From assembly GCF_011045215.1 (NCBI RefSeq), contig NZ_CP049201.1: 64,000 nucleotides of DNA, one strand, 5' to 3'. This stretch comes from Escherichia coli (lineage in GTDB: Bacteria; Pseudomonadota; Gammaproteobacteria; Enterobacterales; Enterobacteriaceae). The position numbers were made by a program, and so were the translations under genes. Shown piece after piece: positions 6,919 to 45,826 of this stretch; the first letter of the stretch is position 1; each line of letters starts with the position of its first letter. The notes under the pieces were generated by a model. It was not told the DNA's origin, did no database searches, and saw only the letters and a list, made by a program, of their open reading frames with translations.

Positions 6919-9092
<2,174 letters not shown>

Positions 9093-9203: not shown

Positions 9204-9296
9204 TTGATGAAAAAAACAAAGATTTAATTTATTGATATAAAAGGATTTGTATCAGCGTATGTCCACGCGGTGACCACATTTTCGAGAGGTAGAGTA

Positions 9297-9323
9297 AGCC
9301 CGCAACATTGCGGGCTTTGTCTT
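9297..9323 (+). terminator. plus-strand hairpin and T-tract just inside the prophage left end
   Basis: agcccgcaacattgcgggct followed by ttgtctt; in the circularised phage this would lie downstream of int across attP. Confidence 0.45.
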
Positions 9324-10113
9324 ATGGTTCGATCGCCGTTTTGAGACGTTGTGTTGCTACATCAAAATAATGATCACTGGTTTCTATACCAATAAATTTG
9401 CGTCCTGCTTTCAGTGCAGCCACACCCGTTGTCCCTGACCCCATAAAAGGATCAAGGACTGTTCCACCACTATTCGCAGTCCTGACCAGCTCTGCCATAA
9501 GTTCTTCTGGCTTTCCGGTCGGGTGCATTTTCTTTGACGGGATAACCGGGAACGTCATGCAGCCGTCGAACGGACCTGAAGGCGATTTATCTAAATGGCC
9601 TTTGCTGCCCCAGACGATGTATTCACACTGATGCCGGAAATACCCCGTATGGGGTGTTCGTGACCCCCTTCCTTTGTTCCACACAATGATTCCACGCCAT
9701 GTAAAACCGCTGGCCTGAAACGCATCGGTTAAAGCTGGTAGTTGTCGCCAGTCAGTAAATACCAGGGCATAACCGCCCGGTCTGACCGCGCGGTGTGCCT
9801 GTGCCATCCATAATTGTGTCCAGTAAGCCCACGAACGGGCGTCCATGTTTTCACCCGCGAACCCATCAAAGCGGTGAAGGTTCCCGCCGTTCAGATATTT
9901 TGCATGGCTGCCCTGGTTGGTGCGTCCGGCCTTGTGTGTCGCACCCGAACTGTAAGGCGGGTCAGTGATTAAAGCATCAATGCTTTCTGGCTCAATCAGC
10001 GGCAATATTTCCAGCGCATTCCCACGACAGAGCGTGGCATTGTCAGTCTGATAAACCTTAGTGTGTTCCGGTGTATGTGCTGGTTGGTGCTGGATTGCGA
10101 TCCCCACGGTCAT
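9322..10113 (-). CDS. DNA amino-methyltransferase (N6-adenine or N4-cytosine)
   Basis: 263 aa; DPPY motif (ITDPPYSSG) precedes the AdoMet motif (FMGSGTTG), i.e. permuted motif order; AGGAG 3 nt before the ATG, lying inside the com 3' end. Confidence 0.85.
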   Translation of the reverse strand: MTVGIAIQHQPAHTPEHTKVYQTDNATLCRGNALEILPLIEPESIDALITDPPYSSGATHKAGRTNQGSHAKYLNGGNLHRFDGFAGENMDARSWAYWTQLWMAQAHRAVRPGGYALVFTDWRQLPALTDAFQASGFTWRGIIVWNKGRGSRTPHTGYFRHQCEYIVWGSKGHLDKSPSGPFDGCMTFPVIPSKKMHPTGKPEELMAELVRTANSGGTVLDPFMGSGTTGVAALKAGRKFIGIETSDHYFDVATQRLKTAIEP

Positions 10114-10255
10114 AACTCCTCATGTGTGTGGGGTGCTCGATGGCTCTCGTTATCTGGTTAAGTGTTTTGCAGCGCGGACATTTTATTTCAATGTAGTGAA
10201 ATGAGGCGCGGGCAAGTAGTTTGTTGCAATTTTTGCATCGTACATTTTGCGTCAT
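10058..10255 (-). CDS. com: Com-like zinc-finger translational regulator
   Basis: MTQNVRCKNCNKLL...IEIKCPRCKTLN resembles Mu Com as recalled (CxxC...CxxC); 3' end overlaps the methyltransferase start by about 56 nt. Confidence 0.75.
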   Translation of the reverse strand: MTQNVRCKNCNKLLARASFHYIEIKCPRCKTLNQITRAIEHPTHMRSYDRGDRNPAPTSTYTGTH

Positions 10256-10302
10256 TTGCGGCACCTCTTGTGTGGTTACTGCTGCCGATATGATAGCAAA
10301 TC

Positions 10303-10337
10303 GATCGTTTTTATCGATCGGATTTATTGCATCGATC
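10303..10337 (-). promoter_or_regulatory. cluster of three GATC sites upstream of com
   Basis: Three TCGATC motifs at 10303, 10315 and 10334 within 35 bp, 40-80 bp upstream of the com start. Confidence 0.5.
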
Positions 10338-10365
10338 TGTTATGTCTATTGCTCATGGATGGGGA

Positions 10366-10401
10366 TACCAAAAAGAAAACCCGCAGTTTTTACGCTGCGG
10401 G
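10366..10401 (-). terminator. rho-independent terminator (minus strand)
   Basis: On the minus strand cccgcag-cgtaaaaa-ctgcggg followed by ttttctttttgg. Confidence 0.6.
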
Positions 10402-10490
10402 CTTGTTGTTCATGTCTGTGAGATAGGGTGCCTTATCGACCTTACCCTGACAACCGATTGACGGGGGATTGCTCCCCCGTCGCGGTTTCC

Positions 10491-10631
10491 TTACTGCTTA
10501 CACTGTAAGAACGCCGCAAACTCCGCTCCCCAGAAGCTCATCCGTATTTCGCATAGCGAACCGTGCAGCATCCAGATGATGAGGATTGCCGTCACGCAGA
10601 ACGTGATGGCCGTAAGCGATTTTTGCGACAT
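10491..10631 (-). CDS. hypothetical 46-aa hydrophobic peptide
   Basis: MSQKSLTAITFCVTAILIIWMLHG...; AAGGAG 8 nt upstream of the ATG; below the ORF-track cutoff so read directly from sequence. Confidence 0.3.
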   Translation of the reverse strand: MSQKSLTAITFCVTAILIIWMLHGSLCEIRMSFWGAEFAAFLQCKQ

Positions 10632-10821
10632 AGCACTTGCTCCTTTTCCGGAGAGGCGCTAACCTTTCACTTGTCAAGGTAATGCGGTTAGGGCCTCGGT
10701 TAAACAGAGATGTTTTCCGGGGCCTTTCCACATCTGGCCTTCGGGTATTCCCTCCGACCATCAGCCGAAAGGCACCCGCGCGTAATCTATCGCTTTTTTG
10801 TTACTCCGGCAATTCTGCCTG

Positions 10822-11082
10822 TTAATTCTGAGGTAAAGGCAAACTCATCTGATTGTTTCCCCTGTGTGAAGCTGGCAGATCATGCCATGGGATACCTTCT
10901 GATGAGTGAACGCCGGAGGCGTGTTTCGATGTAAATTTATGGAAAGCTTCCAGTGTTGAGAAGCATACGCCGCATTCCAGGTTGTTACACTGGTAATACT
11001 TTTGCCGCACGGTGTTTGAATCATTTTCCGGACGACTGGTGCGGATACGGGCAGATGCGCCACAAAGCGGACAACGGAACAT
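10822..11082 (-). CDS. ogr: Ogr/Delta-type zinc-finger late-gene activator
   Basis: MFRCPLCGASARIRTSR...YYQCNNLECGVCF resembles the P2 Ogr Cys4 finger as recalled. Confidence 0.85.
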   Translation of the reverse strand: MFRCPLCGASARIRTSRPENDSNTVRQKYYQCNNLECGVCFSTLEAFHKFTSKHASGVHSSEGIPWHDLPASHRGNNQMSLPLPQN

Positions 11083-11124: not shown

Positions 11125-12234
11125 TCACTCTGTTTCCGCTATCCATTCCGGGATTTTTGCCTCAAGCTCAAGCTGTGTGGTAAAGCCACTGTTATCAATG
11201 GTGTGCTCGGCTTTTGCAATAATCCAGTCCTGATTATCAATCTCGCTTTTAAATCCTGTTACCGTGCCATGCATTTCGGGGTAGAGTTCTGCGCGTCCGC
11301 GTGCCAGTGTGATGGAGAATGATGCGGCTCCGCGTTGTAGTTGTTGCCACTTTGCCGCCGCTGCGCGTCTTGCTGCCTGCTCGTTCTGATAAGTCTTGCG
11401 TAACACAAACACATTGCCTTCCGCGCCTTCCATATAATCACCTTCACGGCTGCTGCTTTTCTCTTTTTTCGGTTTTGGCGGTTTGCGGCGTTTCACGCTG
11501 ACTTTTTTCTTTTTCCCGTAATTAAGATCAAGCCAGTAAGCGCGTACCCCCGTATACGCCTCGCGGTCAGCAATGCGGAACTGATGGCGATCGCCGCTGC
11601 TGCGTGTGATGGCGAACGAGGGCAACGGCTGGCCCTGTGCGTTCACGCCACCGCCGGGCATGATGAATAACAGATTACCGCTTTTTACCGTGGTGATTGC
11701 GCCCAGCATTTCCGCCATGCGCGTAAGGAAGGACATGTCACTTTCTTCGGTCTGGTCGGCGTGGTCGATTTCGATATCCATCAGCATTTCGCTGATTTGC
11801 GGTTTCAGACCGTACCGATGAGCGATGGCGGATACCACACGCTCAACGGTCACATCATGCCAGGACATCTCACGTTTAACGTTAAATTCATCCCGAAAAT
11901 CTGCGCTTCTGGCTGAAACAGTCAGCCTGTCCGGCGGTCCTTCGTGAGCGATTTCATCAACAATGTAAGTGCCTTTTTCTGTCAGCGGTTCTCCTTTCCA
12001 GCCAATGAGAACCGTCAGGCGCGCGCCCCGTGGCGGTAGCTGCAACTGACCATCCGCATCATCCAGCGTGATGGTGAGCTGGTCCGCCTCAAATCCCCGG
12101 TTGTCGGTCAGTGACAGGCTCATCAGGCGCTCGGCCACGCCTGACAGCGTTTTACCCTCCGCGAGAATATCAAAATCCGGCATTTTCACGGGGTCTGTGC
12201 CCTGACTGAGCAATTGCATGGTGGTATCGGTCAT
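11125..12234 (-). CDS. D: tail protein D (gpD / late control D family)
   Basis: Listed ORF 11125..12366; GGAGGG precedes ATG at 12234 (MTDTTMQLL..); lysine-rich central segment; C-terminal NSGFTTQLELEAKIPEW as in gpD. Confidence 0.85.
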   Translation of the reverse strand: MTDTTMQLLSQGTDPVKMPDFDILAEGKTLSGVAERLMSLSLTDNRGFEADQLTITLDDADGQLQLPPRGARLTVLIGWKGEPLTEKGTYIVDEIAHEGPPDRLTVSARSADFRDEFNVKREMSWHDVTVERVVSAIAHRYGLKPQISEMLMDIEIDHADQTEESDMSFLTRMAEMLGAITTVKSGNLLFIMPGGGVNAQGQPLPSFAITRSSGDRHQFRIADREAYTGVRAYWLDLNYGKKKKVSVKRRKPPKPKKEKSSSREGDYMEGAEGNVFVLRKTYQNEQAARRAAAAKWQQLQRGAASFSITLARGRAELYPEMHGTVTGFKSEIDNQDWIIAKAEHTIDNSGFTTQLELEAKIPEWIAETE

Positions 12235-12391
12235 CTGTTCCCTCCCTGTGCGGCATGGTCGCATGTGCGTGCGGAGGGGGTTACTGCTTTTTGTTGTCGC
12301 CGTGGCGGGAGAACGGCGCAGGGGTGAGATTACGCGCGTGGTGGGTGATGATTGTTGCCGAATCATTTAACGGATACAAGGGGCTGAAGCT

Positions 12392-31131: not shown

Positions 31132-31285
31132 AGTTTTTGCCCCTCTGACTGGTTCTTCAGTCATGATGGCAAAGCGTAACAGGCTGATACAAAGGGCTTT
31201 TGTTGTAAGAAAACGGCCAGAACAGGGGGTTAAGGAGAACGGTTTCGCGCGCGGGTAATCTTCCTGTAATTACTCAGGGGGAGCA

Positions 31286-44725: not shown

Positions 44726-44821
44726 GGCCAGAAAACTGGTTAGACCTGCTCTTTGTCTGGTCTGATTATTGCTGGAAAGAGGCTGGAGAAATTGTAGAGC
44801 GGTTCATTGGAGGGCTTCGCA

Positions 44822-45826
44822 ATGTCAATTAAGAAGCTCGAAGATGGTCGTTATTTGCTGGACATCAGGCCGAACGGACGCAAGGGAAAGCGCGTGCGTA
44901 AGGTATTTGACAAAAAATCGGTAGCGGTGGCCACTGAACGCTACATCATGGCGAACGCTGAAAAGCGGGAATATATACAGGGCTACCGTGATCGCCGAAC
45001 GCTAAATGATTTGCTTGAGTTGTGGTGGATGTATCACGGTCAACACAGGCGTAAGGCGGAAGAAGACCGAAAACAACTGCGCAACATAATCAATGAGCTT
45101 GGCGCTGATATGCAGGCTGTGGATCTTGATAAGCTGAAAATTATCGCGTGGCGTTCTCAAAAGATAGCTGATGGATTGAAACCGTCATCTGCTAACAGAT
45201 ACATGAATCGGTTATCCGGAATGTTTACCGTACTGAAGAAAATAGGCCTCTGGGATGCAGAACATCCGGTAAGGGGAATTTCTATTCTTTATGTATCTCC
45301 ACGAGAAATGGCTTTCCTGTCCCAGAAGGAAGTGGCGCTATTGCTCGATACACTGGAGGGCGATTACTGGCGTGTTGCGCTTTTGTGTTTAAGCACGGGG
45401 GCGCGCTGGAGTGAAGCTTGTAAGCTTCGTGGTGAACAGATAGTTCATAACCGTGTAACGTTTCTTGAAACCAAAAATGGCCGAAAGAGAACAGTGCCAA
45501 TTTCGCAGGCAGTTTGTGAGGCGATCAAAACCAGAGAAACAGGCGGCTTGTTTGAGGTGAAGTACCGGGAATTCTGCTTGGCGCTGAAAAGAGTTAAGCC
45601 CGATTTGCCAAAAGGCCAGGCTGCACATGTGCTGCGGCATACGTTCGCCAGCCATTTTGTGATGAACGGAGGAAACATTATTGCGCTTCAGAAGATTCTT
45701 GGCCACGCAACCATTCAGCAAACAATGGCATATGCACATTTTGCACCGGATTACCTGCAGGATGCGGTGGCCCTTAATCCGCTGAAAGGTGGCGTGAGTG
45801 TCCACGCAGTGTCCACGGGGGATTAA
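44822..45826 (+). CDS. int: tyrosine integrase (P2 Int family)
   Basis: MSIKKLEDGRYLLDIRPNGRKGKRVRK.. N-terminus and C-terminal ..HVLRHTFASHFVMNGGNIIALQKILGHATIQQTMAYAHFAPDYLQDA.. resemble P2 Int. Confidence 0.93.
   Translation: MSIKKLEDGRYLLDIRPNGRKGKRVRKVFDKKSVAVATERYIMANAEKREYIQGYRDRRTLNDLLELWWMYHGQHRRKAEEDRKQLRNIINELGADMQAVDLDKLKIIAWRSQKIADGLKPSSANRYMNRLSGMFTVLKKIGLWDAEHPVRGISILYVSPREMAFLSQKEVALLLDTLEGDYWRVALLCLSTGARWSEACKLRGEQIVHNRVTFLETKNGRKRTVPISQAVCEAIKTRETGGLFEVKYREFCLALKRVKPDLPKGQAAHVLRHTFASHFVMNGGNIIALQKILGHATIQQTMAYAHFAPDYLQDAVALNPLKGGVSVHAVSTGD

Follow-up and report, generated by a model that had tools for sequence, protein, structure and literature searches.

The stretch analysed here, a 64,000-nt segment of an Escherichia coli genome (contig NZ_CP049201.1; hereafter the window), contains on its minus strand a short module made up of three GATC sites, a com gene and an overlapping DNA methyltransferase (methylase) gene. 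The module occupies the right end of a prophage that is P2-like (Peduoviridae) and roughly 36 kb long. We regard this module as a mom-type cassette, that is, as prophage cargo that drives an orphan beta-class, probably N6-adenine, methyltransferase by the same kind of control as the com-mom region of phage Mu, and we give this reading, including the mechanism proposed below, a probability of about 0.7. The wiring is real and homologous to that of Mu, but the cassette is common and already annotated, and it is no new kind of system. The coordinates of all features are collected in Table 1.

The Mu com-mom region was aligned with the window, and alignable homology spans the GATC region, com and a hairpin at the junction of com and the payload gene. 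In both, the intervals between successive GATC starts are 18 and 13 bp, and ATAG stands 8 nt before the first GATC; the Com proteins are homologous and the com and payload genes overlap; and a hairpin has a GUG in its stem, with a Shine-Dalgarno sequence in the loop and a Com RNA motif on the 5' side. The Mu stem UCCCAC/GUGGGA aligns with CCCCAC/GUGGGG of the window. Judged from this alignment, the likeness is homology and not mere resemblance, and the exact Mu spacing bears out the sequence-only reading (an earlier interpretation of this DNA made without database searches), in which the cluster had been likened to the GATC sites upstream of Mu Pmom. On the other hand, the two regions differ in several respects. 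The hairpin loop is 20 nt in the window and 11 nt in Mu, and the distance from the third GATC to the com ATG is 51 nt versus 78 nt, i.e. 27 nt shorter in the window. In Mu, the approximately 27 additional bases contain a weak promoter and the C-activator site, neither of which the window has, and the GATC cluster of the window overlaps the predicted core promoter whereas that of Mu lies upstream of the activator site. A 9-mer, TAACCACAC, is common to the C-site region of Mu and the leader of the window, at differing positions. Moreover, the payload is a PF01555 methyltransferase in the window and Mom in Mu, with no similarity between them, and the carrier is a P2-like prophage instead of a transposable phage.

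The small open reading frame 5' of the methylase had been proposed from the sequence to encode a Com-type Cys4 zinc finger, and this assignment stands. The protein matches PF10122 (Zn_ribbon_Com, 1.3e-11) and phrog_13819 ('gpCom control of modification', 2e-17), it is small and has the CxxC-N15/16-CxxC zinc ribbon, and its cysteines C7, C10, C26 and C29 are invariant in an alignment with Com of Mu, KS5, Smp131 and others. The com gene is preceded by the Shine-Dalgarno sequence AGAGG (10268-10264) and lies directly 5' of the methylase gene. Some 1,000 contigs belonging to Escherichia, Salmonella and Klebsiella encode the identical protein.

At the junction, the loop of the hairpin contains the Shine-Dalgarno sequence AGGAG of the methylase (10120-10116), which falls within com as the sequence-only reading had stated, together with AUG 10113, and the GUG is in the 3' arm. 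The minimum-free-energy fold of the junction RNA is -17.5 kcal/mol (z = -2.07). The folding check that had been suggested for this junction thus returned a hairpin holding both the ribosome site and the start, which matches the translation-inhibition structure of Mu, where the GUG start of Mom is in the stem (PMC6483171). The six stem pairs are unbroken in 33 unique variants from related loci. One compensatory change is seen, at the outer pair, which short-leader cassettes have as C-G and Mu-type cassettes as U-A. In Mu, Com binds a short hairpin on the mom mRNA just 5' of the inhibitory structure through CC(N)2-3GAG, and the bipartite motif obtained by systematic evolution of ligands by exponential enrichment (SELEX) is NGAGNNCC(N)2-3GAGNNCC (PMC6483171). 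In the window, GAGAGCCAUCGAGCACC is a full match to this SELEX motif and to the CC(N)2-3GAG core, it adjoins the hairpin that sequesters the start signals, and it is kept in all 16 of the 16 cassette variants checked. The hairpin's 5' arm begins with the terminal two C of GAGAGCCAUCGAGCACC, so Com binding should compete directly with stem formation.

The start of the methylase bears on the overlap of the two genes. The overlap of about 56 nt given by the sequence-only reading holds if AUG 10113 is the start, and it becomes 50 nt with GUG 10107. The latter, in the hairpin stem, is taken as the conserved start instead of AUG 10113, because the distance from the Shine-Dalgarno sequence to GUG is 8 nt in every non-Mu cassette, the copy at locus L029 has no AUG, and no more than 2 nt separate AUG 10113 from the Shine-Dalgarno sequence. 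The enzyme itself is an ordinary beta-class DPPY amino-methyltransferase unrelated to Mom, as had been proposed. It matches PF01555 in two segments (1e-19 and 5e-11) and phrog_67 (1e-81), and has DPPY at residue 51, HPTGKP at 197 and FMGSG at 223; DPPY (motif IV) is therefore N-terminal to FxGxG, the motif I that binds S-adenosylmethionine (AdoMet), which is the beta-class order. The nearest solved relative is the Helicobacter pylori adenine methyltransferase 5hek (1e-20), and others are CcrM, M.MboIIA and M.RsrI. By BLASTP, the similarity between the payload and Mu Mom was not significant (E = 4.3). DPPY within the amino-methyltransferase class favours N6-adenine, and the target base is probably N6-adenine. 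The closest phage relatives, at 41-47% identity, belong to Peduoviridae of Stenotrophomonas, Ralstonia and Burkholderia. No nuclease gene was found beside the methyltransferase gene, which makes the enzyme an orphan at the prophage end. Published methylome studies of ST131 and O111 E. coli do not mention it.

Upstream of com, the three TCGATC sites (10301-10306, 10314-10319 and 10332-10337) are present as described from the sequence alone, with a span of 37 bp in place of the 35 bp given there. With ATAG they form the pattern ATAG-N8-GATC-N14-GATC-N9-GATC, which occurs once in the window. When the 203 GATCs of the window are placed at random, about 1.1 GATC triples within 38 bp are expected per 64 kb; by count the triple is not unusual, and the argument therefore depends on its exact layout and on how well that layout is conserved. 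In diverged copies (L019 and L029), neither the ATAG nor any of the 12 GATC bases has changed, while the rest of the 50-bp stretch is 66-71% identical, which argues for selection on the GATCs themselves. A sigma-70 promoter is predicted here by consensus match (9/12 positions, plus TG), with transcription expected to begin near 10283. Its -35-like TCGATA overlaps the second GATC, its 16-nt spacer holds the third, and its extended -10 begins 7 nt downstream of the third; thus OxyR, if bound, would occupy the core promoter. The sequence TTTGnTATCAT is kept in all window-type copies, including L019, L029 and the deletion variants L026-L028 described below, and the promoter seems not to need an activator.

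The layout of the putative OxyR/Dam site, which overlaps the predicted -35 and spacer, matches that of agn43 (flu) on the prophage remnant CP4-44, and in both cases the sequence between the GATCs is A/T-rich; promoter and OxyR binding in the window are predictions. The agn43 pattern, ATAG-N8-GATC-N15-GATC-N9-GATC, is one base longer (N15 versus N14). The agn43 GATCs appear to be transcribed, because the annotated 5' RNA (isrC) begins at the first GATC, whereas the predicted -10 of the window comes 7 nt after the third, and agn43 has neither a com gene nor the hairpin. The regulatory sequence GATCgtttatatcGATCgataagctaat of agn43 (K-12, L083:407-470) closely resembles GATCgtttttatcGATCgataagttatact upstream of com in L060/L062, a hint that the agn43 switch and the com-cassette switch may share an origin.

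With regard to activation, the C-activator site of Mu (TTAT-N6-ATAA) is not present between the GATCs and the -10 of the window cassette. The consensus of P2 Ogr-type activator sites is TGT-N12-ACA. This pattern was not found near com or at the prophage's own intergenic regions, a weak test, and we rejected dependence of the module on Ogr on the same weak evidence. Two intergenic segments beside the tail-sheath and terminase genes (about 12285-12320 and 31195-31230) both carry TTTTGTTGT-N14-AAC, which may be the late-activator site of this prophage and is unlike the P2 pattern. This motif, taken from putative, unmapped late promoters near 12290 and 31200, is absent near com, again a weak test. 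Since no Mu C, P2-type or local late-promoter motif was found, the late expression proposed by the sequence-only reading is without sequence support, and the promoter looks activator-independent.

From these elements we infer the following mechanism, in which the actions of OxyR and Dam, the action of Com and the anti-restriction role are all conditional. An intrinsic terminator would shield the module from upstream transcription. Transcription would start from the extended -10 sigma-70 promoter, whose -35 and spacer are covered by an OxyR-type site with three Dam targets; on unmethylated or hemimethylated DNA, OxyR would bind and block RNA polymerase, and full methylation would free the promoter. 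A two-gene mRNA would be made and com translated from its own ribosome site, while the hairpin keeps the ribosome site of the methylase locked, together with its two candidate start codons. Com would then bind the GAGnnCC-N3-GAGnnCC motif running into the 5' arm and open the hairpin, allowing initiation at the GUG of the 3' arm. Finally, the enzyme would methylate DNA, the likeliest benefit being that phage progeny have their DNA shielded from restriction in the next host. Com-dependent translation of the methylase is very likely because of homology to an experimentally characterised mechanism, and Dam/OxyR control of the module is likely; OxyR/Dam control of mom is cited in PMC3378877.

The resemblance to agn43 suggests a possibility that the methyltransferase is phase-variable in the lysogen, with heritable ON (methylated) and OFF (OxyR-bound) states and with Com setting only a threshold or a delay, and extra methylation would then appear in only part of the lysogenic population. 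A Mu-type OxyR/Dam site would thereby have been moved onto a self-sufficient core promoter. The site layout is that of agn43, a locus with ON/OFF phase variation by OxyR and Dam according to literature cited in PMC6602927 and PMC4659465; the promoter looks self-sufficient and no activator motif was found; many prophages have the same type of site before cor, an exclusion gene expressed in lysogens; and the P22 gtr operon (PMC2909390) provides an earlier example of a prophage gene under OxyR/Dam phase variation. However, the same site in Mu gives no phase variation, and com-linked and other studied prophage methyltransferases are silent in lysogens (PMC3299994, PMC5778455, PMC4659465); heritable switching in lysogens seems unlikely, though not far-fetched. 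If it were true, Dam methylation would decide whether a second methyltransferase is made, which would amount to a Dam-gated 'phasevarion' in E. coli with Com as a translational threshold, and the same switch before cor, Mom and a C5-methyltransferase would be a general bet-hedging cassette for prophage cargo.

Another explanation is that the GATC cluster and com were inherited and no longer gate expression, the methylase having weak constitutive expression from the extended -10 promoter, or none, as an ordinary orphan enzyme or a decaying one. Variants of the cassette give some grounds for this: in L026-L028 a 31-bp deletion removes all three GATCs and keeps the -10, com and the methylase, in L010 the second GATC is mutated to GAAC, and in L007 and L023 the methylase genes are truncated to 66 and 97 amino acids. 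But GATC, ATAG, -10, Com motif and hairpin are kept where the neighbouring bases diverged by 30-45%, and these elements recur with each of three different payloads, which makes vestigial regulation improbable. It is hardly conceivable that Com acts here as a DNA-binding transcription factor instead of an RNA-binding translational activator. Only the RefSeq product name assigned by the Prokaryotic Genome Annotation Pipeline (PGAP), 'Com family DNA-binding transcriptional regulator', speaks for this, and the name looks misleading because in the experimental literature Com is a translational activator that acts on RNA: it binds the mom mRNA hairpin beside the inhibitory structure (PMC6483171), and both the Com RNA motif and the hairpin structure are present in the window. 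Certain points also weigh against the mom-type reading that we prefer. Since L026-L028 keep com and the methylase without the cluster, the GATC switch is dispensable in some lineages; with no activator site, the promoter might be on in a dam+ lysogen, a poor fit to a strictly late function; and the covariation backing the hairpin comes from one pair only.

The mom-type cassette is widespread. Among 5,426 complete E. coli genomes, 170 contain it with a query coverage of 80% or more, annotated in RefSeq, and approximately 233 complete E. coli genomes have its 5' part. In Escherichia phage Chuche it is 97% identical and annotated as 'gpCom control of modification' plus 'DNA methyltransferase'. 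A comparison of 80 viral-contig loci with Com relatives showed that the short-leader cassette drives three unrelated payloads, namely the beta-class methyltransferase, Mom (L030-L058, L059 and L062; 72-80% identical to Mu Mom) and a 350-aa Dcm-superfamily C5-cytosine methyltransferase (L039, L048, L052, L060, L061 and L063-L066). The cassettes with the last two payloads belong to other E. coli prophages and are close relatives of the one in the window. Homology between cassettes with different payloads stops about 9 nt after the stem, which therefore places the swap point a few codons into the payload, just after the GUG, and the C-terminal tail of Com varies along with the payload. The genes that come before the cassette vary too, being in some cases tail-fibre genes or an esterase-like gene and not P2-type genes. 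The 350-aa payload was also considered as M.EcoGII, a nonspecific adenine methyltransferase of 349 aa, and this identity was rejected because the payload is a Dcm-superfamily C5-cytosine methyltransferase; the M.EcoGII paper makes no mention of com.

The ATAG/GATC layout is not confined to com. In an exact scan of the viral contigs, 25 of 121 sites precede com among the matches listed. The biggest other group, again among the matches listed, comprises 38-54 sites (two counts) that lie 58-61 nt upstream of cor, a phage exclusion lipoprotein gene (NF047972, 1e-39), with the layout GATC-N9-GATC-N14-GATC-N8-CTAT; examples are L092:377-423, L094:10615-10661 and L093:3062-3108, besides about 50 others (L089-L208). 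Where Cor is diverged, the sequence between the GATCs is different and the GATC spacing is the same. A link between cor and OxyR/GATC sites was not found in the literature searched.

Association of com with ordinary methyltransferases has been published (PMC3299994, PMC3091744) and the cassette is routinely annotated, so the combination is not as unusual as the sequence-only reading took it to be. In FluMu and Pnm1, which are Mu-like prophages, in H. aegyptius and in phage B3, com is beside a DPPY methyltransferase in the position of mom (PMC3299994). As in the window, com lies directly 5' of an AdoMet-dependent amino-methyltransferase that is thought to be Com-controlled (FluMu Hin1523, Pnm1 Nma1821, Hia5 and B3 ORF47/48; PMC3299994). 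Hin1523, Nma1821 and Hia5 are nearly nonspecific adenine methyltransferases that are silent in lysogens, and activity of the B3 enzyme was not shown; the com-linked methyltransferases of these prophages are silent until induction and block many restriction enzymes (PMC3299994). They differ from the window enzyme in being relatives of Dam/M.DpnII with DPPY near residue 194, whereas the window enzyme is beta-class with DPPY at 51. They also reside in Mu-like elements of Haemophilus, Neisseria and Pseudomonas, and their near-nonspecific activity was measured (PMC3299994), while the window enzyme is known from its sequence. In addition, tailocin clusters of Pseudomonas have com in association with different cargo genes (PMC4684702).

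A similar arrangement is found in the P2-like Burkholderia phage KS5, where gp21 ('Com translational regulator') overlaps gp20, an N-4/N-6 methylase (PMC3091744). Both are Peduoviridae with com overlapping a PF01555 methyltransferase; the protein compared was KL3 gp28, the conserved counterpart of KS5 gp20 according to PMC3091744, and it is 42.5% identical to the window enzyme. The KS5 cassette lies between tail-fibre and sheath genes and that of the window at the attachment (att) end, and KS5 has an ATG start and a hairpin built differently from that of the window. A GATC cluster was not found in the 150 nt upstream of com in KS5. Unannotated Com homologues with a C4 (four-cysteine) zinc ribbon (...KCPRCG...) are also encoded by phage Smp131 (Smp_05, L085:556-813, deposited as 'hypothetical protein') and by Ralstonia phage YO006_4 (L087 from about 517). 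Among four phages inspected, the com homologues of these two are directly 5' of, or overlap, PF01555 methyltransferases, and a com homologue was not found upstream of the methyltransferase in KL3 and phiE12-2. A published description of the enterobacterial P2-like cassette, its GATC switch or payload swapping was not found in our literature search, which was incomplete.

Positions 9250-10450 of the window are 100% identical to E. coli strain KSC9. The prophage that hosts the module also has a P2 gpA-like replication nickase and a tail sheath gene, besides those in Table 1. On the minus strand, the ogr-like gene is followed by the Hok-family toxin gene, the terminator, the GATC cluster, com, the methyltransferase gene, a G+C-rich hairpin and the prophage end. 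A hok/sok-like pair thus sits between the ogr-like gene and the terminator, which separates the module from both. In the Rfam search, no family matched the com-mom leader, and the sub-threshold sok match was the only one nearby. The G+C-rich hairpin is still phage DNA, as positions 9250-10450 align end to end with phage Chuche. Elsewhere in the window, the densest GATC cluster, six sites in 85 bp (500-585), is inside the 3' coding end of aroC (chorismate synthase).

Table 1. Features of the module, the prophage and the adjacent host DNA, in window positions
Feature	Position	Strand	Details
flk	8097-9092		host gene beyond the prophage end
G+C-rich hairpin	9296-9317	.	just 3' of the methyltransferase stop, near the prophage end
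Beta-class N6/N4 amino-methyltransferase	9322-10107	-	261 aa from GUG 10107, or 263 aa from AUG 10113
com	10058-10255	-	ATG 10255 (or in-frame GTG 10264), stop 10058; 65 aa
Translation-inhibition hairpin	10102-10133	-	5' arm CCCCAC 10133-10128; 3' arm GUGGGG 10107-10102
Predicted Com-binding RNA motif	10132-10148	-	GAGAGCCAUCGAGCACC
Predicted sigma-70 promoter	10290-10317	-	-35-like TCGATA 10317-10312; extended -10 TGcTATCAT 10298-10290
Putative OxyR/Dam site	10303-10349	-	ATAG 10349-10346; GATC1 10337-10334; GATC2 10319-10316; GATC3 10306-10303
Intrinsic terminator 5' of the module	10377-10404	-	10-bp stem, 6 G-C pairs, then TCTTTTTGGT
Hok-family toxin open reading frame	10491-10631	-	phrog_251 'MokW-like host killing', 1e-22
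sok-like antisense RNA match	10618-10777	-	Rfam RF01794, 48 bits, under the gathering score
Ogr-like zinc-finger regulator	10822-11082		prophage gene
gpD-like tail gene	11125-12366		prophage gene
Integrase	44807-45826		prophage gene

Finally, because this kind of system has already been described, the instance in the window mainly adds detail, namely a Mu-type switch that lacks the C activator and is carried by a P2-like prophage common among E. coli. Should the inferred control prove real, the cassette would be a compact and portable two-layer safety switch, combining methylation-sensitive transcription with protein-unlocked translation, that temperate phages of at least three types put before potentially toxic DNA-modifying enzymes and whose payload is swappable a few codons in. 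Such control would also help to explain the usual silence of prophage methyltransferases in methylome surveys and point to conditions that may reveal them.

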